Sequence record: DRR723986_11331 | Strand: one strand, 5' to 3' | DNA: 35,916 nucleotides | Part shown: piece after piece, positions 2,659 to 26,212 of the stretch | Numbering within the stretch: position 1 is the stretch's first letter | How the letters are laid out: each line of letters starts with the position of its first letter | Program-made: the position numbers and the translations under genes | The notes under the pieces: generated by a model | Database searches by the model: none | Told to the model about the DNA's origin: nothing | The model's input: the letters and a program-made list of their open reading frames with translations, nothing else

Positions 2659-2690
2659 GGCGTTAGCCTTTCGACTATTGCTTTCATTTG

Positions 2691-2721
2691 TTGTTAAATT
2701 GTTTATGAGACAGGTTAACAA
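2691..2721. promoter_or_regulatory. Possible CtrA-type sites in the divergent pleD / DUF3572 promoter
   Basis: Inverted TTGTTAA-N17-TTAACAA; each arm carries a TTAAC half-site with a degenerate partner at N7. Confidence 0.4.
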
Positions 2722-2753
2722 ACCCTTTCCGCGCCAGAGACACGGGAACATTT

Positions 2754-7498: not shown

Positions 7499-8086
7499 AT
7501 GCATGGTTTAATCAACAAAGCGATTCAATCGTTTGTCTGCAATACATATGGTCTAAGCCGGTGGGTTCAGATCACCGAAGCAGCACAGCTGGGTTTTGTC
7601 GAATTCGAAGCAATGTTGGTTTATGATGATGACACCTCGATGCGGGTGCTGGCTGAGCTGTGCAATGAAATGGATCGCCCCCAAAACGAAGTGTTAGAGG
7701 ATGTAGGGACCTATCTGGTGTCGAACCCTGCAACCGAAGCCTTGAGGCGGTTGTTGAGGTTTGGTGGCGTGACCTATGTCGAATTCCTACATTCGCTGGA
7801 CGATTTGCCAGATCGGGCGCGCTTGGCGGTTTCGGATCTGTCGCTTCCTCCCTTGGAATTAAGGGAACACACGCAGGGCCAATTCACCTTGACCTGTCAC
7901 CCCGGGTTGCCGGGGTATGCCAACGTCATGATGGGGGTCCTGCGTGCCATGGCGGATGACTATGGGGCCTTGGTGTTCCTGGATCATGATGGAAAACACG
8001 GAGAATCCGAGGTGATATCGATTACCTTGGTTGAAACAGCATTTTCCGAAGGGCGTAGTTTTGATTTGGGAGCACGAGCCAGATGA
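7499..8086 (+). CDS. H-NOX (heme NO-binding, HNOB) domain protein, degenerate heme site
   Basis: MHGLINKAIQSFV..YG...W start, VYDD, EFLHSLDDL, MGVLRAMA; 195 aa. Confidence 0.85.
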   Translation: MHGLINKAIQSFVCNTYGLSRWVQITEAAQLGFVEFEAMLVYDDDTSMRVLAELCNEMDRPQNEVLEDVGTYLVSNPATEALRRLLRFGGVTYVEFLHSLDDLPDRARLAVSDLSLPPLELREHTQGQFTLTCHPGLPGYANVMMGVLRAMADDYGALVFLDHDGKHGESEVISITLVETAFSEGRSFDLGARAR

Positions 8087-9371: not shown

Positions 9372-10061
9372 ATGCGTCTATTGATTTCAGTCTTGGTGAT
9401 CGTGTTGATTGCGCTGGTGGGCGCATCAGCCAATTTACTGTTGCAAGCCTGTGGCGTGACCCTCCCATTTACTGGCGATCGATTTGGGGACTGCGAACAA
9501 AGCCCAGTTGCATCTGTGGTTTTGGCCCAATCTCAGGCGGATCAGGATGCAATTGCTCTGACCCAGAGAATACAGAGTCTGGAACAGAGGTTGGCGCGAT
9601 TGCAGTGCAAAGCCGACCCACCGCCACCTCCGCCGCCGCCACCTCCGCCGAAGCCCAAAACCCCCAGCGGGCTGAAACCAGATGCTTTTGATGAGGCGGA
9701 TATTTCGGTCATGGAAGGATGCTGGGAGCTGTCTTCTGACTACGCGGTACGGGAAATTAATACGGGGCAAATCACGCGTTTCAAATACTGGCGCATTTGT
9801 TTTGACAAAAACGGGCGGGGCACTGAGCAGATGCGATCAACCAATGGGGTACGCTGTAATGGGCGGTTGACGGGTCGCATGCCGGGAAACGGTGTTTTGA
9901 CCATGCGAGAGCCCGGCAATTTGAAATGCGATAACGATTCTTCTATATTCCGCAGGGACATCACCTGCAGAATTGACAGTCGCGGTCGGGCGAATTGCGA
10001 TACCTATCAACCAGAAACCAACGGCCGCAGCTCTGCTACGTTGCGGCGGGCGAGGAGGTAA
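9372..10061 (+). CDS. Membrane-anchored SrfA C-terminal-domain-like protein with poly-Pro linker
   Basis: N-terminal hydrophobic anchor, coiled coil, 11 consecutive Pro, then a Cys-patterned beta domain (EGCW...RC.G...G.L...C......ITC......ANC) matching recalled SrfA C-terminus. ATG 9372 preferred over TTG 9354. Confidence 0.6.
   Translation: MRLLISVLVIVLIALVGASANLLLQACGVTLPFTGDRFGDCEQSPVASVVLAQSQADQDAIALTQRIQSLEQRLARLQCKADPPPPPPPPPPPKPKTPSGLKPDAFDEADISVMEGCWELSSDYAVREINTGQITRFKYWRICFDKNGRGTEQMRSTNGVRCNGRLTGRMPGNGVLTMREPGNLKCDNDSSIFRRDITCRIDSRGRANCDTYQPETNGRSSATLRRARR
9621..9650 (+). repeat. 15-bp tandem duplication inside poly-proline tract
   Basis: CCGCCACCTCCGCCG x2. Confidence 0.85.
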
Positions 10062-10065
10062 GGCC

Positions 10066-11733
10066 ATGGCTGATCAGTTCCTGTCCAAAATTCGCGTGAA
10101 GTCGCAGGATTTTGTTGACGCCGATGGGCAAGCCGTTTTGCAGCGCCACGGCGAACTGCGGGCATTGCTGACAGAGCGGATTGGGCCAGAGGGGGCGGCG
10201 CTTTTTGCGGAACCTTTGATCAACCGGGGCAACGACGCGGCGATGGGCAGTGTGTCTTGGTATTGCGATACGGTGGGGGATGTCCTGCCGTTTTCTCAAT
10301 TGAGCTCTGCGAGGCAAGAACAGACCGAAACCTATCTCAAGGATCATCTGCGTCCGTTGCAATCCATGGCAGAAGATCCCGCAACCGCTGATTTGATTTG
10401 GGGCGCGCTCAGTTCTTACGGAACCGATGATATTGTCGTGGTTGGGGACCGTCCGTTCATAGTCAATTGGGGTTTGTTACCAGACGGAAACGGCGCCAAT
10501 GTGTCGGCACGTCCTCGGCATTTTGAAAATACGCTGGGTCGCTTTCTGCAGGCACCGGTGCGGGCACGACCTGTGGCCGATATTCCACCTGTTGCGCCAG
10601 CGGCGTTTGTATCGAGCCCAGTTCCTGAAGCCCCTGCCGCACGTGCGCTGAGCCCGGTTGCTTGGGTGCCTTTGGTCGTGTTGTTGTTGCTGGCAGGTGG
10701 AGTCCTGTTTTGGTTACTCCAACCGGGTACACGCTTATTCCCGCCTAAATCACCGGTGGTAACGGCGCAGGCAACCTTAGAGGCGCAAGAGGCTACGAAC
10801 GTAAGCCTCAGAAACCGATTGGAAACGCTTCAGGATGCACTGGCGGGGGCAGTCTGTCGCAAAGATGGCGTTCTGATTTTGCCAGATGGGCTGACTCCTG
10901 AAGGGTTGACGCCGCCCAAGCAAGGCACTGGTTTTCCTGAAACGGCTCGAGTGTCACCCGATGCGGTGCTGCCAAATGTGCCCGAACGGGTTTTGGTCCC
11001 TGATGGGCAATCTGGCGAAAACACGCAGACCTTATTGCAGCACATCGAAGCAAGTACCGTGCTTATTCTGTCTCGCGGACAAAAACGGAGTTCTATTGGG
11101 TCGGGCTTTGTGGTTGGGCCGGGTTTGATCGTGACCAACCAGCACGTCATCGCAAATGCAGCCGAAGGCGGCGTTCGGGTGGTGCATAAGAAAGGCGGGG
11201 ATCCTTTGACTGCGCAGGTCCTCAAGGTGCAAGGCCCCTTGGCAGAAACGGGGGGTGATTTTGCACTGTTGCGTGTCGAGGGAGCGGATTTGCCAGCCTT
11301 TACTCTGTTCCGGTCAGCTGAAACTCAAAAGCTGCAACACGTCATTGCCGCTGGGTTTCCCGCAGATGTTCTTGAGTTGGACGCGGATTTTGCGGCTTTG
11401 AAAACAGGGCAGGCGACGTCCATTCCGGACCTGACGGTGACGGATGGGATCATCAATACAGAACAGCAGCTTGGCCCGAACACACGGGTATTGATGCATT
11501 CTGCGCCTCTGAGCGCTGGCAATTCTGGGGGGCCATTGGTGGATATGTGTGGTCGCGTGGTTGGCGTAAACAGCTTTGTTCGCAAAGGGCCGCTGCAAAA
11601 CCGAAGCTATGCATTGTCGATCGAGACGTTGTTTACCTTTCTCGAAGGGACCCCAGCGGATCCGATTGTGACGGATGTCGCGTGCGAAGCGCTTGCCTCG
11701 ACGTCTCCGTTTGTCGCACGGGCAAAGGACTAG
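10066..11733 (+). CDS. SrfA-N-like domain - TM - coiled coil - trypsin-like serine protease
   Basis: GAGGAGG RBS, ATG 10066. N-domain with FAEP...SWY...PFIVNWG, TM WVPLVVLLLLAGGVLFWLL, catalytic triad motifs TNQHV / DFALL / GNSGGPL. Confidence 0.85.
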   Translation: MADQFLSKIRVKSQDFVDADGQAVLQRHGELRALLTERIGPEGAALFAEPLINRGNDAAMGSVSWYCDTVGDVLPFSQLSSARQEQTETYLKDHLRPLQSMAEDPATADLIWGALSSYGTDDIVVVGDRPFIVNWGLLPDGNGANVSARPRHFENTLGRFLQAPVRARPVADIPPVAPAAFVSSPVPEAPAARALSPVAWVPLVVLLLLAGGVLFWLLQPGTRLFPPKSPVVTAQATLEAQEATNVSLRNRLETLQDALAGAVCRKDGVLILPDGLTPEGLTPPKQGTGFPETARVSPDAVLPNVPERVLVPDGQSGENTQTLLQHIEASTVLILSRGQKRSSIGSGFVVGPGLIVTNQHVIANAAEGGVRVVHKKGGDPLTAQVLKVQGPLAETGGDFALLRVEGADLPAFTLFRSAETQKLQHVIAAGFPADVLELDADFAALKTGQATSIPDLTVTDGIINTEQQLGPNTRVLMHSAPLSAGNSGGPLVDMCGRVVGVNSFVRKGPLQNRSYALSIETLFTFLEGTPADPIVTDVACEALASTSPFVARAKD

Positions 11734-11737
11734 AATA

Positions 11738-12637
11738 GTGTTTGGGGATCATCTCATAACCACCTCGACCGAAGGGTTGCAGCCGCTAGGGTCTGCGGCA
11801 CAGCGGTCTTATGAGCTGGTGTCTGGGACCTTACGCGATAGGTTAAGCCCGGCTCATGCGGTGTTGCTGGCAGAACCTGTTGCGGCTGAACATGGAGACC
11901 AGATCGACTGGCATGCTCCGCTCTCTGGTCATATTGTTCGTTTGTTGGATTTAACCGCTTCAGAGCAGAAACTGGTGCGTCTTGAATTGGCGCAGCGCAT
12001 CAGTGAGATTTTGGAGGAATCCAAGATCTTACGCGCAAACCCTGATCCGAGTATGCAACGGTTAGGCGAAGCTTTGACCAATGTTGTCGAGGTGCCGTCT
12101 GAGGCGATGATCTATGTTGTGAAGACTGCAACAGGACTGCATCCGGTTCTGGTTCATTGGGCCTGGGTTAAAGATGAACAAACGCGGGTGCGTGGTGTTC
12201 TGACAAGTATGATCGCGCGGCCGGCCCCGATTGAGCCAGCCGCACCACCAAGGTCGGTTTGGGCAAACCCAATTTGGCGATGGGTGGTGCTTTTGGGATG
12301 GTTTTTGTTGGCTGCAGTGTTGGGACTCATTTTATGGCTGATGGTTTATCCCTGCGGGTTGTCCCTTTGGGGGCCAGAATATTGCAAAAAAGAGGAACAG
12401 GCGCTCGCGGCCCTGTATTCGGAACAATACGTGATTGCGGATCGCATATTGCAGGTCGAACGCGAAATCGCATTGGCAGACCGCCGTTGCATTGCTGTGA
12501 TCCCTGTTGCGCCAGTAAAACCGAAGCCGGAACAGAAGGGCGCACTGCCAGAAGATATTCGAGGCGTAACAACACGCTTTGCAGGTCTGGTGGGGGCGCT
12601 CTACACTCCTTTGAACCGAACAAGATCAGGGAATTAA
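11738..12637 (+). CDS. srfA: SrfA N-terminal-domain protein with TM and coiled coil
   Basis: GTG 11738. LLAEP...GDQIDWHAP...QRLGEAL...PVLVHWAW parallels recalled SrfA N-terminus; TM segment; directly upstream of srfB. Confidence 0.65.
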   Translation: MFGDHLITTSTEGLQPLGSAAQRSYELVSGTLRDRLSPAHAVLLAEPVAAEHGDQIDWHAPLSGHIVRLLDLTASEQKLVRLELAQRISEILEESKILRANPDPSMQRLGEALTNVVEVPSEAMIYVVKTATGLHPVLVHWAWVKDEQTRVRGVLTSMIARPAPIEPAAPPRSVWANPIWRWVVLLGWFLLAAVLGLILWLMVYPCGLSLWGPEYCKKEEQALAALYSEQYVIADRILQVEREIALADRRCIAVIPVAPVKPKPEQKGALPEDIRGVTTRFAGLVGALYTPLNRTRSGN

Positions 12638-12646
12638 AGAACCGTT

Positions 12647-15600
12647 ATGCAAAGCTCTGAACATTTGGCTCGGTTGGTCGACTGGCGGGATGAAATCACG
12701 CTGGTTCCATATTCGGGGATTCAAATCCTCGATTTTGGGTTTCAGCTTGATGCAGTGGAATTGAAAAGTGCGCGTTTTATTGAGCGTGTCGTTGGTGGGG
12801 ATGATGCCCAAGAAGAGTGGGCGTTGGTCCCTTTAACTGGGGTCGAAGATCAAGACGCAGCAATCGAAGCGGGTGCCCGCGCTGATGACGATCCTTATTC
12901 CATCCGGTCGGTTGCAGCGTTGGAGCCCTTTTTGTCAAAGTGGGTTCCGGTGCCAGTTTTGCGTATCAAAACGGATCGTGGCGCGGGCGGCGAAGAAAGG
13001 TTTGATCCGGGCCCTTCGACGTGGTCGCGGATGCGCGTTGTTGAATTGGATGAACCCGACGCTGAAACAGGGCACACGCACCGGGTTCAGCTTGCCATCG
13101 ACACGTCCTTGATCGAAGCGGATCAATCGTTTCAATATTTGTCGCCCGAACGTATGGACGCAGAAAAATCCCGGGAATTCAGGTTTGTGTCTGATCCAGT
13201 GCGCATGGACTGGTTTTTGCGCCGTTTGGAGAGGGATCCAGACGGGGGCATGTTGGATCTTCAGAAATGGGTGTCTGATTGGCTGGATGATCTGTTTATG
13301 GCGTACAAACGGGCAGAACGTCCGGGACGGCGCATCACCAAAGAAACGCTGAACCACAAATTTGAACACTGGGCGCGTTATTTGGGATTCTTGCGGCTGA
13401 TCGATCACGCGATCCAAGTGCCACGCCTGCGGCTGGCCAATACAGTGAGCGCACGTGAAGGGGTGACCCCGGTTGATGTCGAGTTGGTTTTGGACGTTGG
13501 CAATTCACGTACCTGTGGGATCTTGATCGAACGGTTCCCCGGCGAGACGCGCTTGGATCTTGCGCGTTCCTTTCCGCTGGAGGTGCGTAATCTATCGCAA
13601 CCAGAGCTACAGTATTCAGGGCTATTTGACAGCCGGGTCGAGTTTTCCGAATTTCGATTGGGGAATGAACGGTTCGCAAGCCGGTCAGGGCGCCGCAACG
13701 CCTTTGTATGGCCAAGCTTTGTTCGCATGGGGCCGGAGGCCTTGCGATTGGTCGCGGGCGAAGAGGGGACCGAGACCGCCTCGGGACTAAGCAGCCCGAA
13801 GCGATACCTTTGGGACGATACGCCGCTTCAGCAGGATTGGCGGTTTCACCATCATTCAGACCCGAACAATCTGCCTAAATCTTTGCGGGCTGGTATGCGG
13901 TTCTTGAACGAGAATGGCGATGTGCTCGAACAAATCGAAGCGGACGAGCGCGCGCGACTGCGCCCAAGGGGGAAATCAGTCAAGACGCCTGCGATACGGC
14001 CAAGGTTTGCACGGGCTTCGCTCTTTGGGTTTATGCTGGCCGAGATCATTTCGCATGCGTTGATACAGGTGAATGCGCCCGCCTCGCGTGCACGGCGCCC
14101 GCAATCAGAGTTGCCGCGCCGGTTGGACCGCATCATTCTGACCCTCCCGACAGCGACAACCGCGCAGGAACAGGCAATCATTCGATCCAAAGCTAAGGGC
14201 GCATTGGCTTTGGTCTGGTCTTTGATGGGGATGAAAGACGGGGAAAGCGCCATATCGCGCCCGCCAGAGTTGATCGTCGACTGGGATGAAGCCAGCTGCA
14301 CACAACTGGTCTATCTCTATTCAGAACTGACCCAGAAATTTGATGGGCGCATTGATCGGTTTTTGTCCCTCAAAGGCACCCCCCGCGTTCAAGCCTCAGG
14401 TCAAGAACCGACGCCATCCCTGCGTTTGGCATGCATAGACATCGGGGGTGGGACAACCGACCTGATGGTGACGACCTATTGGGGCGAAGCCGGTCGCGCC
14501 CTTGTCCCGCATCAAAATTTCCGCGAAGGATTCAGGGTCGCGGGGGATGAACTGCTGCAACGGGTTATCGCTGCCGTTGTTCTACCCGGACTGCAATCTG
14601 CAATCGAGGCAGGTGGGGGACAGTTTGTTGGCGAAAAGATCCGCGAACTGTTCACGGGTGATATTGGCGGGTTGGATCAGCAGAGCATACAAAAGCGGCG
14701 CCAATTTGCGTTGCGTGTGCTCATGCCTGTGGCGGTTGCCATTTTGGAAAGCTGCGAAACCGCAGATGAGTTTGAGCCTTTGACTTTGGCGGTGTCTGAT
14801 GTGCTGTCTCTTGGGGCCGATGACACTGCACAGCCTGTCCCGCAGGCGTTGACGGCTTATATCGAAGAGGCGGCGCAGGCGCTGGGCGCAGATGGGTTCC
14901 ATCTGGGGCAAGTGTTTCTGACCTATAGCCGAGAAGATGTTGATGCGATTGCGCGTGAAGTGTTTCAAAAGGCGCTGGGCAACTTATCCGAAGTTATCGC
15001 ACATCTCGGGGTGGATGTGGTTCTGTTGACGGGGCGGCCTTCGCGTTTGCCGGCCGTGCGGGCCATCTTGCAGGAACTTATGGCTGTTCCGCCGCATCGT
15101 TTGATTTCGATGCACAGTTACAAGACTGGGCGCTGGTATCCCTTTAGGGACCCGGTCACTCAGCGGATCGGGGACCCGAAATCGACCGTGGCTGTTGGCG
15201 GTATGTTGATTGCACTTAGTGAAAGCCGGATCCCGAACTTCAAGGTAATGACACAAGCTTTTCGAATGCAGTCAACGGCCCGGTTTATCGGTGAAATGGA
15301 CAGTTCCGGGCAGATCATGGCGGACCGTGTTTTGTTTTCCAATGTGGATTTGGATGATCGCAAGCCACCCTCGGATATGGAATCTACCATATCCATGTAT
15401 ACGCCAGTTTATCTGGGGGCCCGGCAGTTACCGTTAGAGCGCTGGACTACAACGCCGCTTTACAGACTTGATTTTGCATCGCAATCCGCACAGTCTCGTG
15501 CCCCGCTTAGGGTTACGTTCGAGCGTACGGATTTTGACGACGATGTGGATGTGGATGTGGAAACGTCGGAAACGGTCCTGCGCCGCGAAGCGATGCGCGA

Positions 15601-15730
15601 GGCGTTTACCGTGACTGAGGTGGAAGATGCCGAGGGCGATGGCATGAAGCGATCCGAAGTGCAGCTGCGGTTGCATACGCTTGGATTTGAAGATGACTAT
15701 TGGATTGATACCGGCCTGTTCCGGCTCTAG
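12647..15730 (+). CDS. srfB: Virulence factor SrfB family protein (Hsp70/actin-like ATPase fold)
   Basis: 1027 aa. ITLVPYSGIQILDF, THRVQLAIDT, LDVGNSRTCGILIE, SSPKRYLWD, WDEASC, IDIGGGTTD, LTGRPSRLP, DPKSTVAVGG. Confidence 0.92.
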   Translation: MQSSEHLARLVDWRDEITLVPYSGIQILDFGFQLDAVELKSARFIERVVGGDDAQEEWALVPLTGVEDQDAAIEAGARADDDPYSIRSVAALEPFLSKWVPVPVLRIKTDRGAGGEERFDPGPSTWSRMRVVELDEPDAETGHTHRVQLAIDTSLIEADQSFQYLSPERMDAEKSREFRFVSDPVRMDWFLRRLERDPDGGMLDLQKWVSDWLDDLFMAYKRAERPGRRITKETLNHKFEHWARYLGFLRLIDHAIQVPRLRLANTVSAREGVTPVDVELVLDVGNSRTCGILIERFPGETRLDLARSFPLEVRNLSQPELQYSGLFDSRVEFSEFRLGNERFASRSGRRNAFVWPSFVRMGPEALRLVAGEEGTETASGLSSPKRYLWDDTPLQQDWRFHHHSDPNNLPKSLRAGMRFLNENGDVLEQIEADERARLRPRGKSVKTPAIRPRFARASLFGFMLAEIISHALIQVNAPASRARRPQSELPRRLDRIILTLPTATTAQEQAIIRSKAKGALALVWSLMGMKDGESAISRPPELIVDWDEASCTQLVYLYSELTQKFDGRIDRFLSLKGTPRVQASGQEPTPSLRLACIDIGGGTTDLMVTTYWGEAGRALVPHQNFREGFRVAGDELLQRVIAAVVLPGLQSAIEAGGGQFVGEKIRELFTGDIGGLDQQSIQKRRQFALRVLMPVAVAILESCETADEFEPLTLAVSDVLSLGADDTAQPVPQALTAYIEEAAQALGADGFHLGQVFLTYSREDVDAIAREVFQKALGNLSEVIAHLGVDVVLLTGRPSRLPAVRAILQELMAVPPHRLISMHSYKTGRWYPFRDPVTQRIGDPKSTVAVGGMLIALSESRIPNFKVMTQAFRMQSTARFIGEMDSSGQIMADRVLFSNVDLDDRKPPSDMESTISMYTPVYLGARQLPLERWTTTPLYRLDFASQSAQSRAPLRVTFERTDFDDDVDVDVETSETVLRREAMREAFTVTEVEDAEGDGMKRSEVQLRLHTLGFEDDYWIDTGLFRL

Positions 15731-15736
15731 AGGGTG

Positions 15737-18364
15737 ATGATGAGCGTAGATGCACAGACGAAACTGGCCGCCTCATGTAGCGATATTGCTGAGCTGTCCG
15801 GACAGGCGTTGGCCTGGATCGAAGATGGTGAAAATAGCGCGCTGATCGGGGCTGAAACACGGTCCTTGGTTCAGGTGATGCGTAAATCACAACGCCGGGC
15901 ACGACGTTTGGCGCGCGCGGCAACGACACGGATGTCGGTCAGTGTGTTTGGGCCAAGCCAAGCGGGTAAATCGTTCCTTGTGTCCGTACTTGCCCGCCCG
16001 GAAACGGGCCCTTTGGTCGCCGATTTTGATGGGCCGAATGGACAGCTAGACTACATTCGCGAGATCAATCCCGAGGGGGAAGGTGAAAGCACCGGATTGG
16101 TGACACGTTTCACCATGGAAAAGCACGCATCGCCTGATGGCTATCCGATCCGCCTGACCCTGCTGAGCGAGGCCGATCTGGTCCGGACGCTGGTGAACTC
16201 GTTTTTCATGGACGGCGACCGTTCAGAACAGGTTCCGTCGCCAACGGACCTTGCAGCGCATCTGGACCAATTCAAGGCGCGTAGCGGACCAACACAGCCG
16301 GGTATTGATGCCGATGAGATCCATGAGATTGGCGACTACATCGACAACCTCTTTGGACGAGAGGCCTATGCCGCAGCACTCAAACCGCTTTGGGATGAGG
16401 CAGCCGAATGTGTGCCGGGCCTGTCGCTTGCGGATCGCGCCGCGTTTTTTGCGGTTCTTTGGGGCGGGCATACGCCGTTTTCGGAACTTTATCTCAAGCT
16501 GGGCGGTGCCTTGGCTCAACTGGGGCATTCTGAAACTGTCCATGTTGGACTAGATGCGCTGATCCCGCGTGAAACGTCGATTATTGATGTCAAAACGCTT
16601 AGTGGTGTGGGGGATGCCGCACCGTTGGCTGTTCTGACCGAGGCGGGTGCGCGTGTTGCATTGCCCCGGTCCGTGGTGTGCGGATTGGCGGCAGAACTTG
16701 TTTTACCGATGCGGGATTTGCCTTCAGAACTGTTCTCTGAAACGGATCTGTTGGATTTCCCCGGTGCGCGCAATCGCTTTGAACAGGATCTGTCCAAGGC
16801 GTTCGTGAATGCAGAGGCCATCCTTCCTGAGCTGCTGTTGCGCGGGAAAGTGGCTTATCTCTTTGATCGTTATGTACAAAATCAAGAGATCACGTCGATG
16901 TTGCTGTGCATCCCAGACAGCAATATGGAAACGGTTGATTTGCCGGGATTGGTGCAAACTTGGATTGCCTCAACACACGGATCGACCCCAGAACAGCGCG
17001 CCGGGGTCGATCCGGTCCTGTTCATGGTCCTAACCAAGTTTGACAAACATTTGGGTGACAGTGCTGCCGAGGGCGGGGACGAGACACGGTTTGAACGCCG
17101 TATGCAGGCATCATTGCTGGAAAAATTTGGCAAGGGCAGCGACCCTTGGGTGCGGGATTGGCAACCGGGGCGGCCATTCAGCAATTGTTATTGGCTGCGC
17201 AATCCCAATTTCTATGTCGATGGGCTGCTCGAGTATGGGCCAAACAAAGTTGAAACCGGCATTCGCCCGGATAAGGTTGCCCGGATTGATGAGTTGCGCC
17301 GTGGATGCTTGCAAGCACCGTCGGTTCAAACGCACTTCACCGACCCCCAAGCTGCATGGGAGGCTGCACTTTCGTTGAATGACGGGGGGGTGGGGTATCT
17401 GTTGCAGAACCTTCAAGCGGTGTGCCGACCTGATCGCAAGCTTGAACAGATCCAAATCCAGCTTGAACAACTGCGCACGGGCTTGCAGCAAGCAATGTCC
17501 CCGTTTCATGTGTCCGATGATGTTGAGGTCCGCATTTCTGAGAAGCAAGAAGCAGCAGGTCGGGTGATTGATGACTTGGAGCAGGTGTTTTCGCGGCATC
17601 GGTTCGGGGCCTTGATCGCCGCGTTGATGGTGGATCAGGAAGAAATCGAAGGGCGGATCAGCCGAGTACCAAGCACGGTACGGATCACAAACGCGGTGCA
17701 AGCAGCGACCGAAACGGCACCGCGATCGGCGGGGTTACAGCGACCGGGTCGGGGCGCACGGCCACAATCGAACTCAGTCTCTGCTGCGTCAGAGATCCGA
17801 ACGATGAGCCTGGCCGAGTTTCAGGCCGAAACAGCGTTGTCGATCTGGATCGACACGATCAAGAACTTCCGCGAGGATAGCGCGCGGCGCGGTGCTTACG
17901 GCTTAGGGGATGCGGCTGCGCAAGATTTGATCAGTGAGTTGATTCATGCGGCGCGGCGCACCAAGCTGAGCCATCGGACTGCGATCCAGCTTGAGGACGT
18001 GAATTTTGGCCTGACGGTAGAAAAGCAAGCGCAACCTGCCTCTATCTTGGGGGCCGAAGCCATCAACACCTTTGTGTCCACTTTGGGGATGCTGGACATC
18101 CCAGAAAACAATCGCCCCAAGATAGACTTGGTTGACGGCGAAACACGCCCGATTTTTGCAACTCTTGAGGCATCAGATAGCGCGGATGACTTGCCTGCGC
18201 ATCCTGCCCCTGTCGGTGAACGGGTGTGGACCGATTGGGTCTTTGGGCTGGATGCATTGTTTGTGGCGAATGCGAAAGAGGGGCTTGGGGGGCAAGTGAA
18301 TGTCGATCAAAACTTGCGGTTGGGACGCATTTTGACCGCGCTGAATGGGTCGTCTCAGGTATGA
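15737..18364 (+). CDS. srfC: Virulence factor SrfC family protein (P-loop, dynamin-like GTPase motifs)
   Basis: GPSQAGKSFLVS, ESTGLVTRF, DLLDFPGAR, LLRGKVAYLFDRY, LTKFD; follows srfB. Confidence 0.92.
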   Translation: MMSVDAQTKLAASCSDIAELSGQALAWIEDGENSALIGAETRSLVQVMRKSQRRARRLARAATTRMSVSVFGPSQAGKSFLVSVLARPETGPLVADFDGPNGQLDYIREINPEGEGESTGLVTRFTMEKHASPDGYPIRLTLLSEADLVRTLVNSFFMDGDRSEQVPSPTDLAAHLDQFKARSGPTQPGIDADEIHEIGDYIDNLFGREAYAAALKPLWDEAAECVPGLSLADRAAFFAVLWGGHTPFSELYLKLGGALAQLGHSETVHVGLDALIPRETSIIDVKTLSGVGDAAPLAVLTEAGARVALPRSVVCGLAAELVLPMRDLPSELFSETDLLDFPGARNRFEQDLSKAFVNAEAILPELLLRGKVAYLFDRYVQNQEITSMLLCIPDSNMETVDLPGLVQTWIASTHGSTPEQRAGVDPVLFMVLTKFDKHLGDSAAEGGDETRFERRMQASLLEKFGKGSDPWVRDWQPGRPFSNCYWLRNPNFYVDGLLEYGPNKVETGIRPDKVARIDELRRGCLQAPSVQTHFTDPQAAWEAALSLNDGGVGYLLQNLQAVCRPDRKLEQIQIQLEQLRTGLQQAMSPFHVSDDVEVRISEKQEAAGRVIDDLEQVFSRHRFGALIAALMVDQEEIEGRISRVPSTVRITNAVQAATETAPRSAGLQRPGRGARPQSNSVSAASEIRTMSLAEFQAETALSIWIDTIKNFREDSARRGAYGLGDAAAQDLISELIHAARRTKLSHRTAIQLEDVNFGLTVEKQAQPASILGAEAINTFVSTLGMLDIPENNRPKIDLVDGETRPIFATLEASDSADDLPAHPAPVGERVWTDWVFGLDALFVANAKEGLGGQVNVDQNLRLGRILTALNGSSQV

Positions 18365-19335
18365 GTTTGGAACTACACGGTGATCCACAGCATAGGGCGG
18401 GTGGGTACGGATTTCTGGAATTGCCGGAACACAGCTTGCCGGACACTGTCGAAATCGCCGTGCAGGATGCCTATTCAGAACGGTGGTTGAACCCATCCCC
18501 TGAACAACGCGTCACGGTTGGAGAGGCCAACTGGCAACCGGAACGTCATGCGTTCGGCCCCTATCAGGTGTTGCGTCACGAAGGTGCGGATTGGGTTCGG
18601 ATTGGTCCCGAAATCATCAATAAGATCGAAGAGTACACAGCGGTACGTTTGGACGTAAATGGCCAGAGGCACGAGGTGGTTTGGCCAGATATCCTTACAC
18701 CTTTGGCGGGGGCTGCTGCCTTGGGCGGTTTGCAGGTCACACCGAAAGTTATGCCGGTTCAAGATCCAGAACCGAAATCATCACCCCCACGAGAACAAGT
18801 TGAGATCCCAGTTCAGAGTGCTGTTTCAGAGGGGCAGAAACCAACGTCTAGGGGTTGGATTTGGATCTTGCTCTTGTTGGTTCTACTGGGCGGGGCTGCA
18901 TTGGCTTGGAACCTGTTCAAGGGTGAGACGGCCCCGGTTGTTGCGCAATCGGATGGGTCTGCAAGTGATTGTAACTTTGAGACATTGTCAGCTCTGCCTG
19001 ATTTCAAGGCTCGTAATTCAGCAATGCGGAGCTGTGGCAAAGAGATCTCTCCTGATGTGGTGTTGCGCGTCATTGAGGATGCGTCCAAAGCAGGAAACGC
19101 GGAGGCTTTGCTGTTGTTTGGGACGCTCTATGATGAGGATGAGCTGGACCCACGGATAGAGGTGTTGATTGGGCTCACCTTTGCTGATGATCCGGCGCGG
19201 GCGGTTTACTATTATGCTCAGGCACAGGCGGCTGGTTCAACAGAGGCAGACGCGCGCCTCGCTGGTGCGTGCAAACGGCTAACAGGGTCTACGCAGACCT
19301 TGGAAAAGGGGGCATTTGATGATTTCTGCGGTTAG
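18361..19335 (+). CDS. Bitopic membrane protein with C-terminal Sel1-like repeats
   Basis: ATGA overlap with srfC. N-terminal soluble domain, Pro-rich linker, TM WIWILLLLVLLGGAALAW, then GNAEALLLFGTLYD...DPARAVYYYAQAQAAG. Confidence 0.7.
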   Translation: MSLELHGDPQHRAGGYGFLELPEHSLPDTVEIAVQDAYSERWLNPSPEQRVTVGEANWQPERHAFGPYQVLRHEGADWVRIGPEIINKIEEYTAVRLDVNGQRHEVVWPDILTPLAGAAALGGLQVTPKVMPVQDPEPKSSPPREQVEIPVQSAVSEGQKPTSRGWIWILLLLVLLGGAALAWNLFKGETAPVVAQSDGSASDCNFETLSALPDFKARNSAMRSCGKEISPDVVLRVIEDASKAGNAEALLLFGTLYDEDELDPRIEVLIGLTFADDPARAVYYYAQAQAAGSTEADARLAGACKRLTGSTQTLEKGAFDDFCG

Positions 19336-21232
19336 TAAACTCGTTAGTCTTATCGGATTTGGTCTAACGCTGGCCTTACCGGTTGCTGCTCAGTCGACTG
19401 AGCGCCCTTTGCTGGTTGAGGGACGGCAAACGATTTATCAGCGCGTTCTAACACGCCCCGGGGCACTGATGTATGAGGCTCCGGATGGCGCAATTGAACG
19501 ACAGTACCCGGCTTTTCAACCCTTATACGTCTATGGCGTCCAGGGATCGTGGCAACAGGTTGGCCCGTCTCTGTCCCAAGGTCCACAAGGATGGGTCAAG
19601 ACTGAGCAAGTCGTTCCGTGGAAGCAAAATATAGTTGCGAGTTTCACCAATGCGGCCGGGCGTAAGCGACAGGTGTTGATGCAGAGCGAGGCCCACTTGA
19701 AGGCCTTGTTGGATCATGAATCCCTGCGCGAGGTGCAAGATCAGATCCTTGCCGAAGTGGCGAAGGGAGAGGTGCTCGAAGAGCGCGGTGTTGTGGCTGC
19801 CGAACCAGAGGAATACGTGAATATTGTCGAGCGGCTGTATTTGATGCCCATTCTTGACTTTGTTCAGGACCTACACCCATCGAATTATCAGGAAAACCTG
19901 TTGATGCAGGTGGCCTCGGTTCCATTGCAGGAAAGTGGCGTTCAAGCGGGCGCGATTGCGGATAATTTCGATGCAGGGATTGTGTTTGTTTTTGATACGA
20001 CCCAATCCATGAATCCCTATATTGAGCGGACACAGGCCGCCGTTGAACGGATCGTTGATGGCTTGCAAGACACTGAAATCGGAAAACGTGTTCAATTTGG
20101 GGTGGTTGCATTTCGTGACAATACTGATGCTGCGCCGGGTTTAGGGTACCGCACAAAAACGCTGTTGCCTTTGCAACGGCGCAGGGACCAAGGGCAAGTT
20201 GTTGCAACCATTCGCGCAGCAACGGATGTGGCTGGAGTGAACTCGCCGGGATTTAACGAGGACAGTTTGGCCGGGGTCGAAGATGCGATTGAGTTGACCG
20301 ATTGGACACCCGAAGGGAACGATCCTTTTGATGCGCGTATCGTCATTCTTATCACCGACGCAGGACCAAAAGACCCCCGCGATGCCAACGCGCGATCTGA
20401 TATCGGCCCGTCCGAGCTGCAACGTGCCGCACAAGACAAAGGTGTGGCGGTCATGACATTGCATTTGCAAACTGCAGCGGGCGGTGCGGCGCAACATCAG
20501 TGGGCCAAAAAACAATACCAAGCCTTGTCGCGTTTCAACGACGAAACCTATTATTATGGGATTGAGAATGGCGCGCCGGCAGCGTTTGAGGCAACGGTTA
20601 CACGTTTGGTGACGGCTTTGACCGATATCATCCGCGTGGCGCGCAGTGAGAAACCTGTTCTGGATCCCAAAGACGCTGGCAAAGTGGTGAACTTGGGGTT
20701 GGCGATGCAGTTGGCCTATCTCGGGCGTTTGAAAGACACGCAAGCCCCTGATGTGATCGAAGGGTGGGTATCTGAGAAAGCGATCGAAGACCCATCACGC
20801 CTTGCGATTGAGCCGCGCTTGTTGGTGTCTAAGAATGAATTGGCGACGATGGCGGATCTGCTGTCTGAACTTTTGGATTTGGGCGAGCAAAGTCGAAATG
20901 CCGAAGATGCACAGGCGTTCTTTACACAAGTTCAAAACGTTGTCGCGCGCATGGCGAAAAACCCGGATCGCCTGTTGAACCCTGAATCCGAGACATTGGG
21001 GGGCGCACTCGAATTCTTGGAGGACTTGCCCTACGAAAGCCAGTTGATGCTGACCACCCAACAACGATGGCAGCAAAGCGCAATGGTCCGCCGGTCTATC
21101 CTTGATGGGATGCGGCAGAAATTGGTGCAGTACCGAAAATGGTTGCATGATCCGACGGTTTGGACCGCTTTGTTCGATGGGGCAACGGACGGGGAATACG
21201 TCTTTGCCATGCCCTTTGACGTCTTGCCGTGA
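19319..21232 (+). CDS. Exported vWA-domain protein resembling the PpkA periplasmic region (no kinase domain)
   Basis: Signal peptide ending PVAA-Q; PLLVEGRQTIYQRVLTRPG; SH3-like GWV...W; MIDAS FDTTQSM, VAFRD, LITDAG; C-terminal LPYES...LP. Confidence 0.8.
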   Translation: MISAVSKLVSLIGFGLTLALPVAAQSTERPLLVEGRQTIYQRVLTRPGALMYEAPDGAIERQYPAFQPLYVYGVQGSWQQVGPSLSQGPQGWVKTEQVVPWKQNIVASFTNAAGRKRQVLMQSEAHLKALLDHESLREVQDQILAEVAKGEVLEERGVVAAEPEEYVNIVERLYLMPILDFVQDLHPSNYQENLLMQVASVPLQESGVQAGAIADNFDAGIVFVFDTTQSMNPYIERTQAAVERIVDGLQDTEIGKRVQFGVVAFRDNTDAAPGLGYRTKTLLPLQRRRDQGQVVATIRAATDVAGVNSPGFNEDSLAGVEDAIELTDWTPEGNDPFDARIVILITDAGPKDPRDANARSDIGPSELQRAAQDKGVAVMTLHLQTAAGGAAQHQWAKKQYQALSRFNDETYYYGIENGAPAAFEATVTRLVTALTDIIRVARSEKPVLDPKDAGKVVNLGLAMQLAYLGRLKDTQAPDVIEGWVSEKAIEDPSRLAIEPRLLVSKNELATMADLLSELLDLGEQSRNAEDAQAFFTQVQNVVARMAKNPDRLLNPESETLGGALEFLEDLPYESQLMLTTQQRWQQSAMVRRSILDGMRQKLVQYRKWLHDPTVWTALFDGATDGEYVFAMPFDVLP

Positions 21233-21236
21233 GGGG

Positions 21237-21944
21237 ATGATGGCCGGGCTTAGTCTCAGAGATGCGTGCATCAGCCTTGTCGATGGGGAGCGGACCTTCA
21301 AAGTCGAAATTGATGCTTTGGATCTGTCAGCCGGGCAGGCCGTCGCCCTGACAGGGGTAAGTGGGTCTGGAAAAACACTGGTGCTAGAGCTTTTGGGCCT
21401 GTTGCGTGCGCCAGATGCAGGTGCGAGTTATTTCTGGAAAGGGCAAAACCTTGCTGCGCTTTGGTCCAAAGGGCCGCGCAGCCAAGCGTTGGCGCAATGC
21501 CGTGGACAGGTGTTTGGTTTTGTACCCCAAACCGGGGGGCTGCTGCCGTTTTTGACGGTGTCGCAAAATATCGGGTTATCGCAATCGTTGACAGGGCGGG
21601 TGGATCACGATTGGCAGACTGCTTTGATTGAACGCCTGGATCTAGGGGACGTATCGGCGCTTTTCCCTGCCGCTTTATCAATAGGGCAGCGCCAGCGGAC
21701 GTCCATAGCGCGGGCACTTGCGCACCGTCCGGCGTTTGTCATTGCGGATGAACCCACGGCCGCGCTTGACCCAAACAGCGCGGATCAGGTGCTGGAGCTG
21801 TTTTTGGAAATCGCACAGGACCAAGGCAGTGGTGTTATCCTATCTTCACATGATCATGATCGCATCGCGCGTCATGGGATCGGGCAATTGCGGCTCTTTA
21901 TGGTTCCGGGGGGCAGGCCGCTGAGCCGGTTAGAGGTGGCATGA
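21237..21944 (+). CDS. ABC transporter ATP-binding protein (LolD/TagT-like)
   Basis: Walker A GVSGSGKT, signature LSIGQRQR, Walker B VIADEPT, H-loop SSHD. Confidence 0.92.
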   Translation: MMAGLSLRDACISLVDGERTFKVEIDALDLSAGQAVALTGVSGSGKTLVLELLGLLRAPDAGASYFWKGQNLAALWSKGPRSQALAQCRGQVFGFVPQTGGLLPFLTVSQNIGLSQSLTGRVDHDWQTALIERLDLGDVSALFPAALSIGQRQRTSIARALAHRPAFVIADEPTAALDPNSADQVLELFLEIAQDQGSGVILSSHDHDRIARHGIGQLRLFMVPGGRPLSRLEVA

Positions 21945-23140
21945 AACAGATCGCCTGTCTTGCCGTACGTGATCTGTTCCATTCGCGGGTCTTTTTGTTC
22001 TGTAATACTGCCATCATGGTTGGCGTATTGGTCCCATTGTTGCTGCTGTTTGGGGTAAAAAATGGGGTCTATTCGGCTTTGATCGGTGAAATGCTGGCCA
22101 ATCCTGCCAATCTGCAAATCGATACTAGTGGCAATGCAACGTTTTCGCCTGCAGATGTCGAACAACTTGGTACTTGGCCCGAGATTGCATTCTTTACGCC
22201 CAAAGTTCGAGGGCAATTTGACTACATGAATGTACGGATCCAGGGGGGGCGTCGTTTGAAATCGGCTGTGGTCATTCCATCTGGCGCAGGCGATCCCACG
22301 CTGCCTGTAGGGGTAAATTTGCCAGAGGGGCATGTGGCTGTCAGTGCGCAGCTGGCCCGACAGCTGCAGATTTCAGCGCATAGCGAAATCGAATTGATCA
22401 GCCAGGCCGAAGGGCGCTCAAAACAGCTGCGACTGCCGATGAAGGTCGTGACGGTTCTCCCCGAAGGAGCGATGTCAGGACGTGCTGTACTGTTGGCGTT
22501 TCCGACACTGGATGTGATCGAGGCCTTTTATGAATCCTATACGTTGCCAACCTATGGCATTAAGGGGGCTCGGAATCTTGAGGATCGTGTGCCGTCTTAC
22601 GAAGGGGTGCGGGTGTTTGCCGATCGGTTAGAGGACTTAGCTGCGCTGCAGTCACGACTAGAAACAACGTTGGGGGTTCGGACTCTGGCCCGGACTCAAG
22701 AGGTGAATACCTTGCTAGGGTTGGGGCAAAAGCTCAACCTGGCGTTGGGGTTGACCGCAGCATTGGCGGCATTGGGTTTGGGGGCTGCTCTGGTCTTTGG
22801 ATTTTGGTCAGACGTTGCGCGCAAACGGCAAACCTTGGCAGCCATTGCATTGCTGGGCGTGCCGGGACGCACGTTGGCACTGTTCCCTATGGTGCAAGCT
22901 AGTCTGACGGCAACCTTTGGGCTGGGCCTGTCGTTCCTTTTGTATTTGGGCGCAGGCCAAATTGCTGACAGCTTGTTTGGTCAGGGGTTGCCAGATGGCG
23001 CGGTTTTGGCTCTGATTTCGCAAGGGCAGGCCACGGGCATTTGCATTGCGGTGTACCTCTTGGTCTTGGCAGCGGCGGGTGCAGCTGCTTGGTCTGCTTT
23101 GCGATTGGACCCAGCGACTGTTTTGCGAGAAACATCATGA
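21941..23140 (+). CDS. ABC transporter permease, FtsX/MacB-type (TagS-like)
   Basis: One N-terminal TM (PLLLLFGVKNG), large periplasmic loop, three C-terminal TMs, ending ALRLDPATVLRE. Confidence 0.88.
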   Translation: MKQIACLAVRDLFHSRVFLFCNTAIMVGVLVPLLLLFGVKNGVYSALIGEMLANPANLQIDTSGNATFSPADVEQLGTWPEIAFFTPKVRGQFDYMNVRIQGGRRLKSAVVIPSGAGDPTLPVGVNLPEGHVAVSAQLARQLQISAHSEIELISQAEGRSKQLRLPMKVVTVLPEGAMSGRAVLLAFPTLDVIEAFYESYTLPTYGIKGARNLEDRVPSYEGVRVFADRLEDLAALQSRLETTLGVRTLARTQEVNTLLGLGQKLNLALGLTAALAALGLGAALVFGFWSDVARKRQTLAAIALLGVPGRTLALFPMVQASLTATFGLGLSFLLYLGAGQIADSLFGQGLPDGAVLALISQGQATGICIAVYLLVLAAAGAAAWSALRLDPATVLRETS

Positions 23141-24687
23141 TCTGGCGCTTACTTGTTGCCCTGTGCTTCTTGCCGGGAGGGCTAAATGCTCAGCCCACAG
23201 TGTGGCCTTTGGACATGACCGATCCAGCGGCCAAGCACCACGCCCCTGCTGATCTGGTTCTGCCAATGCCATGCGGCGCCTCTATGGCCTTTCAAAAGGT
23301 AGAGGTGCCTGTTGATGCGCGTGATCCTTTGGCGGACCGGCGGATGCGGTTGGGGCAATCTGTAAATCTGACAGGGTATTCGGATTATCTGCGTTCGGCC
23401 TTTTTGCGTGGCCCCTTTTCTGATCGAAGCAACATCACGTATTTCTATATCGCTCGGTATGAGCTGACACAGGGCCAATTTCGCGTTCTACAAGGCGATT
23501 GCACACCGCCCACACGTGCGGACCGTATCGCACGGGGTGGTATGAGCTGGTATGACGCCGTGACTTTGGCCAAGAACTATACCTCTTGGCTGTATCTGAA
23601 TTCACCCAAAGCTTTGCCGCAATCGGACGGTGCACGTGGTTTTCTACGTCTCCCGACCGAAGTGGAGTGGGAATTTTCTGTGCGTGGCGGGACGGCAGTT
23701 GATGCAAATACCTTTCCCAAACTCACCTATATCGATGATGACGAAATGCGGGACCATGCGTTGCACCAAGGGGTTGGGTCAGGAAAGGGGCGCTTGGGCG
23801 CTGTAGGGGTGCGGGCGGCCAATCCGCTGGGCCTATACGATGTATATGGCAACGTCGAAGAATTGATGCTTGAACCCTATCGCATGAATGCACGCGGGCG
23901 CGCGCATGGGCAAATTGGTGGTGTGGTCACCCGGGGGGGATCCGTCTTGTCTGAGGTGGATCAAATCTACAGCGCACAGCGGACTGAATACCCGCCCTTT
24001 GACCCGCAAACCGGGCATCCGCTGCGCGGCGAAACATTTGGCGTGCGTTTTGTGATTTCCGCCCATGTCGCGACATCCGATGCGAAACTGGCAGAGATCC
24101 AGAAACGTTGGGGGGAAATGGCGAGCTTAGATCCAAATGAGGCGGCGGACCCTGCCGCTGTTCTTGCAAATCTTGCGCGTGACGAGCCGGATCTGACTCG
24201 GCAAGAGCAATTGACCGACCTGTTGCTGGGGTTGCGGCGCAATCAAGATCAGATGGATATCGCTATCCAGCAATCGGCGCGCGCTTCGTATTTGGCCGGG
24301 GCTGCGTTTGTTGAAGCCTTGAAAACAAGCGCAGAAGCGATCGAAGCAAAGGCAATCAACATCCGCATGTTGGCCTCACTTCAAAGGGCGGGAAACCAGA
24401 GCGACATGTTTGACCGTCAACTGCAAGGGCATGTGCGCCAAATCGCTGAGATGCGGGCCCGCCAAACAGGCGTGTTGCTGTCTTACAGAGCTGTCTTGGA
24501 TGTTCTGAGCGAAGACGTTCCGCCCGATATCCGCGCCTCTGTTCTGCCGGTGCTCCGCGAGGAGTTGAGCCTGTCGGGGCAGACGCGGCGGGTACATCAT
24601 CTGGATGATTTCGCGCGCGATTTGGAAACGTTTATCAAAAAACCGGATCTGAGTACCGAGGAATTGATGTCCGGGGCGCTGAAGTAG
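23137..24687 (+). CDS. Exported FGE-sulfatase (SUMF1/EgtB/PvdO) domain protein with helical tail (TagR-like)
   Basis: Signal peptide; DLVLPMPCG; YELTQGQF; RLPTEVEWEF; NPLGLYDVYGNVEE; TRGGS; FGVRFV. Confidence 0.85.
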   Translation: MIWRLLVALCFLPGGLNAQPTVWPLDMTDPAAKHHAPADLVLPMPCGASMAFQKVEVPVDARDPLADRRMRLGQSVNLTGYSDYLRSAFLRGPFSDRSNITYFYIARYELTQGQFRVLQGDCTPPTRADRIARGGMSWYDAVTLAKNYTSWLYLNSPKALPQSDGARGFLRLPTEVEWEFSVRGGTAVDANTFPKLTYIDDDEMRDHALHQGVGSGKGRLGAVGVRAANPLGLYDVYGNVEELMLEPYRMNARGRAHGQIGGVVTRGGSVLSEVDQIYSAQRTEYPPFDPQTGHPLRGETFGVRFVISAHVATSDAKLAEIQKRWGEMASLDPNEAADPAAVLANLARDEPDLTRQEQLTDLLLGLRRNQDQMDIAIQQSARASYLAGAAFVEALKTSAEAIEAKAINIRMLASLQRAGNQSDMFDRQLQGHVRQIAEMRARQTGVLLSYRAVLDVLSEDVPPDIRASVLPVLREELSLSGQTRRVHHLDDFARDLETFIKKPDLSTEELMSGALK

Positions 24688-24922: not shown

Positions 24923-26212
24923 ATGTATAAGAAATTTCTCTGTGCGGGTTTTGTTGCCAGTAGCTTGGTTCTGGTTCCTGCAAAAGAAACCCGGGCCAAT
25001 GATGCGGCTGCTTTGATCGGTGGTGCCTTAATTGGTGGAATTATTATCAACGAAGTTCATAAAAACAAACAACGTCAGCGCCAAACCACAACGCAGACGA
25101 CGCGAACAAAGAAACGGTCTTCGGGCATTTCAACTGCGCAACGCCAGCAGAACAGGGATGTTCAGACATCTCTGAACTACTTTGGGTACAATGTTGGTGC
25201 TGTTGATGGCTCTTTGGGGCGAAAGAGCCGTGTCGGGATTTCACGATACCAATCCGACATGGGCTATAATACGGACGGCTACCTTGATGATCACGAACGT
25301 AGCTTTCTTGTCGGATCGCACCAACGGGCCTTGGCCAGTGCACATGTCGCACCATACAATCAGATCTTGGCCTCTCAGGGGCAACAGGGCCTGCTAAGAG
25401 CGTATCGGAACGAGCAGCTTGGGATTCCCATTCAACAGCCATCCCAAGCGCCAATTCAGCACACGACCGCAGCGGCTCCGGCAGCGGTTCCACAAGCTCC
25501 GAGCACCGTTCCAACACGGGCCAGCACCGCAGCTTTGCCTGACTTCACGTTTGGTCAGACTTCTCGAACGGCCAATGCGCTGTGTAACGAGGTCAATATT
25601 TTGACCGCAGCAAATGGGGGGCTGACGACGGCCAACCGTGTGACGGATGCAAACTTTGCCCTGAACGAACAATTCTGTCTCTCGCGCACACAAGCCATGG
25701 CTGAAAGTTCACGGATCGAGGCAACAATCCCGAACCTGACAGCCCCTCAGATTGAACAGCAATGCGAAGGCTTGACCCAAGCTATTGCGCCTATGATGGA
25801 AGGGGTCGAAGCGGCCCAAGCTGGACAGGTGCTGGCCAAGACATCAACCTTCCTCACAAACTCTGGAAAACCCATGAACCAGCTGATTTCTGGTGGTAAA
25901 GTGTGTCTCGGGATTGGGTACAGAACCGACAATGCCAAAATGGCAATGGCTTCTGGGCTGTTGTTGGCGGGGGCAGGTGAACTTGGATATGGCGAAACCG
26001 TCAGCCACCATCTGCGCGAAGGCATTGGGACCAATCGTGCAGCGGGTCAACAACCCACGGAATGGATGCGGCTGGCGTTGAATGGTGTTCAAGCCGGGAG
26101 CACGGTACCAGGGCAATCTAGCGATCGAATTGCGGTGTTGAGCGCAGCGGTGAATGCATCATCTGCTGGTGGGGGGGCTTTCCCTGTGTTCCCAACGGCA
26201 ACTGGAAACTGA
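24923..26212 (+). CDS. Exported peptidoglycan-binding domain protein
   Basis: GAGG RBS, signal peptide, PG_binding_1 pattern VQTSLNYFGYNVGAVDGSLGRKSRVGISRYQSDMG..DGYL, Pro/Ala linker, four-Cys C-terminal domain. Confidence 0.85.
   Translation: MYKKFLCAGFVASSLVLVPAKETRANDAAALIGGALIGGIIINEVHKNKQRQRQTTTQTTRTKKRSSGISTAQRQQNRDVQTSLNYFGYNVGAVDGSLGRKSRVGISRYQSDMGYNTDGYLDDHERSFLVGSHQRALASAHVAPYNQILASQGQQGLLRAYRNEQLGIPIQQPSQAPIQHTTAAAPAAVPQAPSTVPTRASTAALPDFTFGQTSRTANALCNEVNILTAANGGLTTANRVTDANFALNEQFCLSRTQAMAESSRIEATIPNLTAPQIEQQCEGLTQAIAPMMEGVEAAQAGQVLAKTSTFLTNSGKPMNQLISGGKVCLGIGYRTDNAKMAMASGLLLAGAGELGYGETVSHHLREGIGTNRAAGQQPTEWMRLALNGVQAGSTVPGQSSDRIAVLSAAVNASSAGGGAFPVFPTATGN

Follow-up and report, generated by a model that had tools for sequence, protein, structure and literature searches.

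The closest described counterpart of the locus analyzed here is the TagQRST-PpkA-Fha1-PppA pathway of the Pseudomonas aeruginosa H1 type VI secretion system (H1-T6SS; PMC13713981, PMC13584744). Sequence record DRR723986_11331, a stretch of 35,916 nucleotides referred to hereafter as the window, encodes a homolog of the PpkA ectodomain with a domain of the von Willebrand factor A (vWA) type, followed by TagT-, TagS- and TagR-like proteins in the same order, and the position of the TagR loop is kept. Unlike the H1-T6SS pathway, the locus has no kinase, no PpkA-type transmembrane (TM) segment, no PppA, Fha or TagQ and no T6SS core genes; it has an additional gene for a TM protein with a Sel1-like domain (TM-Sel1) and carries srfABC upstream. 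A neighborhood of srfABC, tagQRST and "ppkA" was described in host-associated Deltaproteobacteria, mostly without T6SS (Campbell et al. 2013, PMC3608642). The accessible part of that paper gives the same gene set as found here, but takes PpkA to be a kinase. One homolog from the Desulfovibrionaceae, not necessarily from a strain of the 2013 study, is 647 amino acids (aa) long, too short for a kinase. A 2026 preprint (bioRxiv 10.64898/2026.09.18.752743) describes, as far as its text is accessible, the same cassette of SrfABC, vWA protein, Lol-like transporter of the ATP-binding cassette (ABC) type and formylglycine-generating enzyme (FGE)-type protein, with a bitopic SrfA-N of non-catalytic, kinase-like fold. 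It reads the cassette as a vesicle toxin export system and draws no link to PpkA or TagR there; unlike that system, the present locus distributes SrfA-type domains over three genes, one of them with a protease. In the accessible secondary sources, the "ppkA locus" of P. syringae is counted as a putative T6SS cluster and srfB is listed among T6SS genes (Sarris et al. 2010, via PMC7146990 and PMC8959697). That locus is probably of the present operon type, which is found in a Pseudomonas-type genome at L106. We read the locus as a modular trans-envelope signaling cassette in which a separate TM-Sel1 protein would be the transducer and SrfABC the output, the one-piece PpkA having arisen by fusion with a kinase, and we give this reading a probability of roughly 55%.

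The open reading frame (ORF) at 19319-21232 (+) encodes a protein of 637 aa. Residues 2-20, which end in V-A-A before Q, are its sole hydrophobic stretch (Kyte-Doolittle 1.84), and both this residue pattern and the homologs suggest a cleavable signal peptide. None of the VAIK, HRD, DFG or Gly-loop motifs was found in the protein, nor a Pkinase match, nor an internal TM like the one between kinase and ectodomain in PpkA. The first-pass annotation, made from the sequence alone, had reported these three features, and the hydrophobicity and motif scans bear it out. Its proposed kinship with the C-terminal region of PpkA also held: residues 19-637 align to 403-1028 of the kinase-TM-ectodomain protein P0210 (30% identity, 643 columns, E 5e-81), our Pseudomonas-type reference, which is 83% identical to the named P. 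chlororaphis PpkA. The alignment confirms the product as a kinase-less homolog of the whole Pseudomonas-type PpkA ectodomain, predicted to be headed for secretion. The Pfam VWA match spans residues 222-389 (E 8.6e-7). An AF2 model (pLDDT 90) has a beta-rich N-domain that may be SH3-like, an integrin-type vWA domain and a helical C-domain; it matched integrin-type vWA domains, Foldseek gave generic vWA domains only, and a PDB sequence search found no match for the ectodomain. Residues of the metal ion-dependent adhesion site (MIDAS) type are kept among 107 aligned homologs (D226 in 106, S230 in 105 and D347 in all 107).

Homologs were taken from 1038 representatives at 50% identity, of which the 150 with the best matches to the present ectodomain were used. 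Five proteins among these 150 reach 900 aa or more, and a scan of the 22 longest or N-extended representatives found two with Pkinase and one with an ExeA-type AAA domain. With a kinase in two of 150 clusters, the free form clearly prevails. In the main tree (161 rows, unrooted, 25 partial or duplicated rows dropped), the 15 Pseudomonas-type fused proteins formed one clade with support 1.0, and the proteins closest to this clade, P0231 and P0206, begin with a signal peptide. A second fusion, P0172, sits elsewhere in the tree. Constraining both kinase fusions to one clade was rejected (p-AU 5.7e-5, 35 rows), and a 41-row tree concurs. The ectodomain of locus L099 is sister to the P0172/P0272/P0273 clade (support 100/99). 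P0273, which has a signal peptide, shares 97.5% identity with the ectodomain of P0172, and its contig carries a Sel1 end upstream and tssA downstream. The Pseudomonas fused clade is shallow (73.5% identity for two members) compared with about 30% identity across the free forms. The free form is probably the diverse majority, with fused PpkA nested inside it through at least two separate fusions. Because the tree is unrooted and sampled from matches to the present query, calling the free form ancestral rests on this nesting and diversity. The earlier claim that the kinase had been "replaced" found no support, since the free form dominates and fused PpkA nests within it; the direction was probably the reverse. 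Further outputs may be represented by P0207, P0170 and P0257, in which the fusion partner of the ectodomain is either an ExeA-type AAA ATPase with a TM or a short Cys-rich domain, likewise with a TM.

The gene directly upstream, at 18361-19335, encodes a predicted cytoplasmic N-domain of unassigned fold (no usable match in an Atlas search), a Pro-rich linker, a TM and a periplasmic Sel1-like domain, the last encoded by 18949-19332. Such a gene lies directly upstream in 67 of the 72 loci with a free ectodomain and in none of the five fused loci; the 72 are those with a complete 5' end, after four truncated frames and 15 duplicate loci were dropped. The five others are L004, L079, L094, L095 and one contig edge. 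In L090, L092 and L099, the TM-Sel1 protein in that position (E 3e-8, 5e-5 and 3e-14, respectively, among 5544 ORFs) has a Ser/Thr kinase, HRD and DFG included, as its cytoplasmic part, and the kinase and TM of L099 are 61% identical to those of the fused P0172. When the Sel1 region of the kinase-Sel1 protein was used as a query, the protein itself was the sole match. These comparisons show a TM-Sel1 protein whose predicted cytoplasmic end is swappable, a Ser/Thr kinase in some loci and an uncharacterized domain here. Fusion through loss of the Sel1 domain and the signal peptide is the simplest reading of P0172, and it would follow that the ectodomain is normally held at its membrane protein by the Sel1 domain. 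The overlapping upstream TM-Sel1 protein would then be the best candidate for the transducer. Among the routes across the membrane proposed in the first-pass annotation (SrfA-like proteins, Sel1 proteins or the ABC transporter), the comparative evidence favors Sel1 and speaks against the ABC transporter as a kinase substitute, since the latter is also retained in fused T6SS loci.

Several of these loci have further contents. L090:1728-16337 holds two kinases, three FHA proteins, of which one has vWA and another trypsin, a PP2C-TM protein, tagT/S/R, a TagQ-like gene and the free ectodomain; the L090 genome gave no VipB or srfB match, and a locus similar to the L090 cassette was found in L092. 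In L098:1-8138 the free ectodomain, with the Sel1 gene upstream, is accompanied by tagT/S/R and TagQ-like genes and then tssA, which we read as a two-piece sensor beside a T6SS gene. L094:446-9178 and L095:780-9538 encode N-extended ectodomains, tagT/S/R, a glycine-zipper gene and a peptidoglycan-binding trypsin, with no Sel1 gene; in L095 a TIR-domain gene lies upstream.

The ectodomain gene belongs to a tightly packed run on the + strand (9372-24687; intergenic gaps -17 to +9 nt), which is followed by a gap of 235 nt and a peptidoglycan-binding gene. The genes, in order, are:

9372-10061, +, SrfA C-terminal-like (SrfA-C-like) periplasmic protein with an N-terminal membrane anchor (NF040486 positions 274-425, E 3.9e-17; hydrophobic N-terminus)
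10066-11733, +, SrfA-N domain, TM and periplasmic trypsin-like protease, H/D/S motifs present (NF040486 E 2.7e-8; Trypsin_2 E 7e-25)
11738-12637, +, second SrfA-N domain and TM, candidate degenerate protein-kinase-like fold (NF040486 E 3.6e-18; model pLDDT 90.7)
12647-15730, +, srfB (PF07520, far above cut-off)
15740-18364, +, srfC (PF10139, far above cut-off)
18361-19335, +, bitopic TM-Sel1 protein (TM segment; Sel1-like domain; 4-nt overlap with srfC, 17-nt overlap with the vWA gene)
19319-21232, +, predicted secreted homolog of the PpkA ectodomain (signal peptide followed by a beta-rich N-domain, a vWA domain that has the MIDAS residues and a helical C-domain)
21237-21944, +, TagT-like ABC ATPase (44.5% identity to the T6SS-locus TagT; Walker A/B and H-loop present)
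21941-23140, +, TagS-like four-TM permease (four hydrophobic segments; 31% identity to the T6SS-locus TagS, E 3e-25)
23137-24687, +, TagR-like periplasmic FGE-fold protein (PF03781 E 1e-19; 29% identity to the T6SS-locus TagR)
24923-26212, +, secreted peptidoglycan-binding protein in the tagQ position (PF01471 E 1e-7; no lipobox)

The srfA, srfB and srfC genes stand in that order, and the SrfA model NF040486 matched in three pieces, each below its cut-off. The SrfA-N/TM/trypsin architecture is also present in L077 and L078. Promoter and terminator scans of the window gave matches at chance level only. Directly upstream of the operon, at 7499-9123, an H-NOX (HNOB) gene is followed by an HNOBA-GGDEF gene, likely a nitric oxide-responsive cyclic di-GMP pair, and a PleD-like response regulator diguanylate cyclase is encoded at 1264-2751 (-).

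As the first-pass annotation had it, tagT/tagS/tagR-like genes follow the vWA gene: all three have their counterparts in the genes that separate ppkA from tagQ in the T6SS locus L074 (ATPase E 3e-45, FGE protein E 2e-38; identities as listed above). The TagR-like protein has Cys at 10, 46 and 122 only and none after the RGGS motif at 266. Formylglycine-generating enzymes presumably need a catalytic Cys pair, which is missing here, so FGE-type catalysis is unlikely. Its Gly-rich loop, which ends in Arg, aligns with the loop through which TagR is predicted to touch PpkA. In the accessible part of PMC13713981, AlphaFold3 puts that loop into a PpkA pocket and deletion of the loop stops duelling. 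By these comparisons the putative periplasmic parts (TagR-like protein, TagST-like ABC transporter and free ectodomain) share homology with the membrane-damage sensor of the Pseudomonas H1-T6SS. The gene at 24923-26212 is not a TagQ homolog, as it gave neither an NF041250 match nor an alignment, and no lipobox was found in the window. The best TagQ match in the relative genome G001 (E 3e-4) lies elsewhere in that genome. This peptidoglycan-binding gene is kept in many roseobacter loci.

The output here is probably SrfABC. A structure search with SrfA-N (11738-12637) against 48,161 chains gave 50 top hits that are all kinase-fold by title, at Z scores of only 3.6-5.0; the best Foldseek match had an E of 0.037, and VAIK, HRD and DFG motifs were not found in this protein. 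It may be a degenerate kinase-like fold without catalytic motifs, which agrees with the 2026 preprint. EssB of type VIIb secretion is a bitopic pseudokinase. Its kinase-like cytoplasmic fragment (PDB 4ano) matched SrfA-N with Z 4.1 and rmsd 4.5 over 116 aligned residues, which is an analogy of fold only. In SrfB, the DxGN, DxGGGTTD, GR and DEA core residues are invariant in 62 sequences, and we take them to be actin/Hsp70-type ATPase motifs. The motifs conserved in 64 SrfC sequences are presumably G1-G4 of a P-loop GTPase type. PDB sequence searches found no match for SrfB or SrfC. A candidate reading in which PpkA had been split, SrfA-N being its decayed kinase, was dropped: the profile match between them is not significant (E 0.18), and both SrfA and the ectodomain are also found where the other is missing.

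The short form of the ectodomain and srfB occur together in three samples. In the phylum sample, the ectodomain is present in 12 of 401 genomes, and srfB accompanies six of the seven short forms and none of the five long forms; the latter sit in T6SS loci with pppA, tagF and tagQ (two loci annotated by family scan). The family sample has the ectodomain in 21 of 251 genomes with no frame above 853 aa; srfB is found in 16 of these 21 and in no other genome of the sample. Of 121 genomes in the Pseudomonas-type genus, 52 carry the ectodomain (seven short frames of 665-693 aa, 42 long frames of 968-1345 aa and three broken). The seven short-form genomes are exactly the seven with srfB, which is absent from all 42 long-form genomes, and no genome of the 52 has both forms. 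The one short locus of this genus that was read contains the full operon. The arrangement is not rare, since besides the 21 family genomes 126 plasmid records, 114 of them from Klebsiella, match at least 80% of the ectodomain query. Three of the four regions read show srfB-srfC-bitopic-vWA-ABC-permease plus a TagR-like gene. On a Klebsiella plasmid, L002:3188-20043 holds the full operon and a TagQ-like glycine-zipper gene between IS elements. Reduced srfABC loci without the sensor (L080-L085) have a shorter SrfC with decayed GTPase-type motifs. At L096:9858-11165 a single ORF joins SrfA-N, partial trypsin and the SrfC C-terminus in a genome without srfB, which we regard as an internal deletion or a misassembly.

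None of the 30 window ORFs scanned matched the kinase, PP2C or FHA families, as expected from the first-pass annotation, which had reported no PppA or FHA gene in the window and a locus without threonine-phosphorylation output. The nearest loci are from Rhodobacteraceae (98% and 94% identity), and genome-wide absence was judged from relatives at 94%, 98% and 80% identity (G001-G003, completeness unstated). Three of the five relatives searched, these two nearest included, gave no match to Pkinase, FHA, PP2C or the T6SS sheath protein VipB; the remaining two have Pkinase, FHA and VipB elsewhere in the genome. Over 27 ectodomain genomes, seven, again including the two nearest relatives, lack any Pkinase match and 20 have some (18 over the cut-off). 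A cognate kinase/FHA pair, which the first-pass annotation considered incompatible with its view, does exist in the sister loci G628 and G468, where a separate kinase gene lies beside the free ectodomain and FHA proteins (with PP2C in G628). The present locus type has none.

In the mechanism that we propose, an envelope stimulus would cause a TagR dimer to gather two ectodomains, as modeled for PpkA. The ectodomain would dock on the periplasmic Sel1-like domain, and clustering would be relayed through the TM of the bitopic protein. SrfA, SrfB and SrfC would then assemble at the stimulated membrane site without phosphorylation, as a membrane-anchored scaffold of degenerate kinase fold, an Hsp70/actin-type ATPase and a large GTPase, respectively. 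One-piece PpkA would have formed when the ectodomain acquired a kinase-TM unit and lost its signal peptide, the Sel1 domain disappearing as well, a step that is well supported for P0172 and supposed for Pseudomonas.

Several observations weigh against this reading. The Sel1/ectodomain pair is not obligatory, since four of the 72 free loci (L004, L079, L094, L095) have no Sel1 gene and the srf loci L086 and L087 carry that gene but no ectodomain. The 72 loci come mostly from close roseobacter kin, and eight distant loci helped to build the Sel1 profile; L071, L090, L092, L098-L101 and L103 are independent of it. The Sel1 score of L092 is close to that of an unrelated-looking Sel1 protein (E 2.6e-4). 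There is no TagQ homolog here, while TagQ starts the Pseudomonas response, and this weakens the damage-sensing step. The Z scores of SrfA-N are low, the tree has no root and draws on the best matches to the present query, and 20 of the 27 ectodomain genomes have some kinase match elsewhere. VipB is commoner in family genomes with the ectodomain (10 of 21) than in the others (55 of 230; p 0.034). In the phylum sample, the ectodomain is missing from eight of the 14 genomes with srfB; six of these eight have a short SrfC and no Sel1 gene (four of the six without GK[ST]), and two keep the Sel1 gene. What the comparisons show is homology and co-occurrence; the binding steps, the function and the stimulus are proposals.

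The signal could instead pass from the same sensor through the SrfA-type bitopic proteins, with a degenerate kinase fold inside and a lipocalin-like domain or protease outside, leaving Sel1 as an accessory. The operon does encode two SrfA-N TM proteins, SrfA-N has a candidate kinase-like fold and a PpkA-like topology, and the preprint, in its accessible part, models SrfA-N binding SrfB and then SrfC. SrfA, however, is kept in the loci without the ectodomain (L080-L085), ectodomain and Sel1 are kept without SrfA in L090, L092 and L099-L101, and the profile comparison with the PpkA kinase was not significant, which makes this route unlikely. We consider it quite unlikely that the cassette assists in exporting or maturing an SrfABC toxin, with a Lol-like ABC transporter, a modifying FGE enzyme and vesicle export. 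This is the proposal of the preprint, and the ABC transporter has LolD/LolCE-like family matches; Xenorhabdus SrfABC is reported as cytotoxic to animal cells in the accessible part of PMC6950479. Yet the same four genes are found without srf genes in T6SS and kinase/FHA loci, the Cys content of the FGE protein argues against catalysis, the operon occurs in free-living marine bacteria, and the accessible text of the preprint does not mention PpkA or TagR.

That a canonical PpkA lost its kinase and had its output replaced secondarily, perhaps by mechanotransmission through the ABC transporter, would suit an unrooted tree covering the best 150 of 1038 representatives, and according to the accessible literature P. 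aeruginosa requires the ATPase activity of TagST in vivo. It is nevertheless very unlikely, as the shallow fused Pseudomonas clade, with its signal-peptide relatives, would require the root inside the clade or on its stem, and the ABC transporter is present in fused loci too. We give least credence to a free ectodomain that works as a sensor or decoy with a kinase or T6SS whose genes lie in another part of the genome. The VipB enrichment, the kinase matches in 20 of 27 genomes and the free form adjoining tssA in L098 point that way, but 11 of the 21 family genomes have no VipB, seven of the 27 have no kinase match, the two nearest relatives among them, and the two forms never occur together in the 52 Pseudomonas-type genomes. 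The reading that we prefer, with TM-Sel1 as transducer, can be extended, tentatively and with more doubt than confidence, to a broader picture. TagRST and the free ectodomain would be an old and widespread envelope-damage sensor, TM-Sel1 its adaptor with exchangeable ends, and SrfABC its commonest output, an ATPase/GTPase machine for membrane repair or remodeling recruited to lesions and not primarily a toxin; tit-for-tat firing of the Pseudomonas T6SS would have come from the kinase fusion.

The gene neighborhood itself is already in print (2013, 2026), and the kinase-less, swappable-transducer reading was not found in the literature searched. That search, with most subscription papers outside its reach, returned nothing stating a kinase-less form, a Sel1 transducer or a fusion origin, and the accessible text of PMC13713981 and PMC13584744 makes no mention of srf. 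The system is real and widespread, its two-piece form being the common one and the textbook kinase looking like a later fusion. Many proteins of 640 aa are named "serine/threonine-protein kinase PpkA" without having a kinase. In its accessible part, a 2026 paper presents the TagQRST-PpkA pathway as a membrane-damage response that is unique, with the part played by TagST left open; harmless, T6SS-free hosts of the present operon may be suited to studying TagST. In the accessible text of the preprint, the function of srfABC in Salmonella is described as undetermined. Our results suggest that TagQRST-PpkA is a single version of a broader sensor that has at least three outputs (SrfABC, separate kinase and FHA/PP2C proteins, and fused PpkA). 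From this follow testable proposals for how T6SS retaliation originated and for what srfABC does in the cell.

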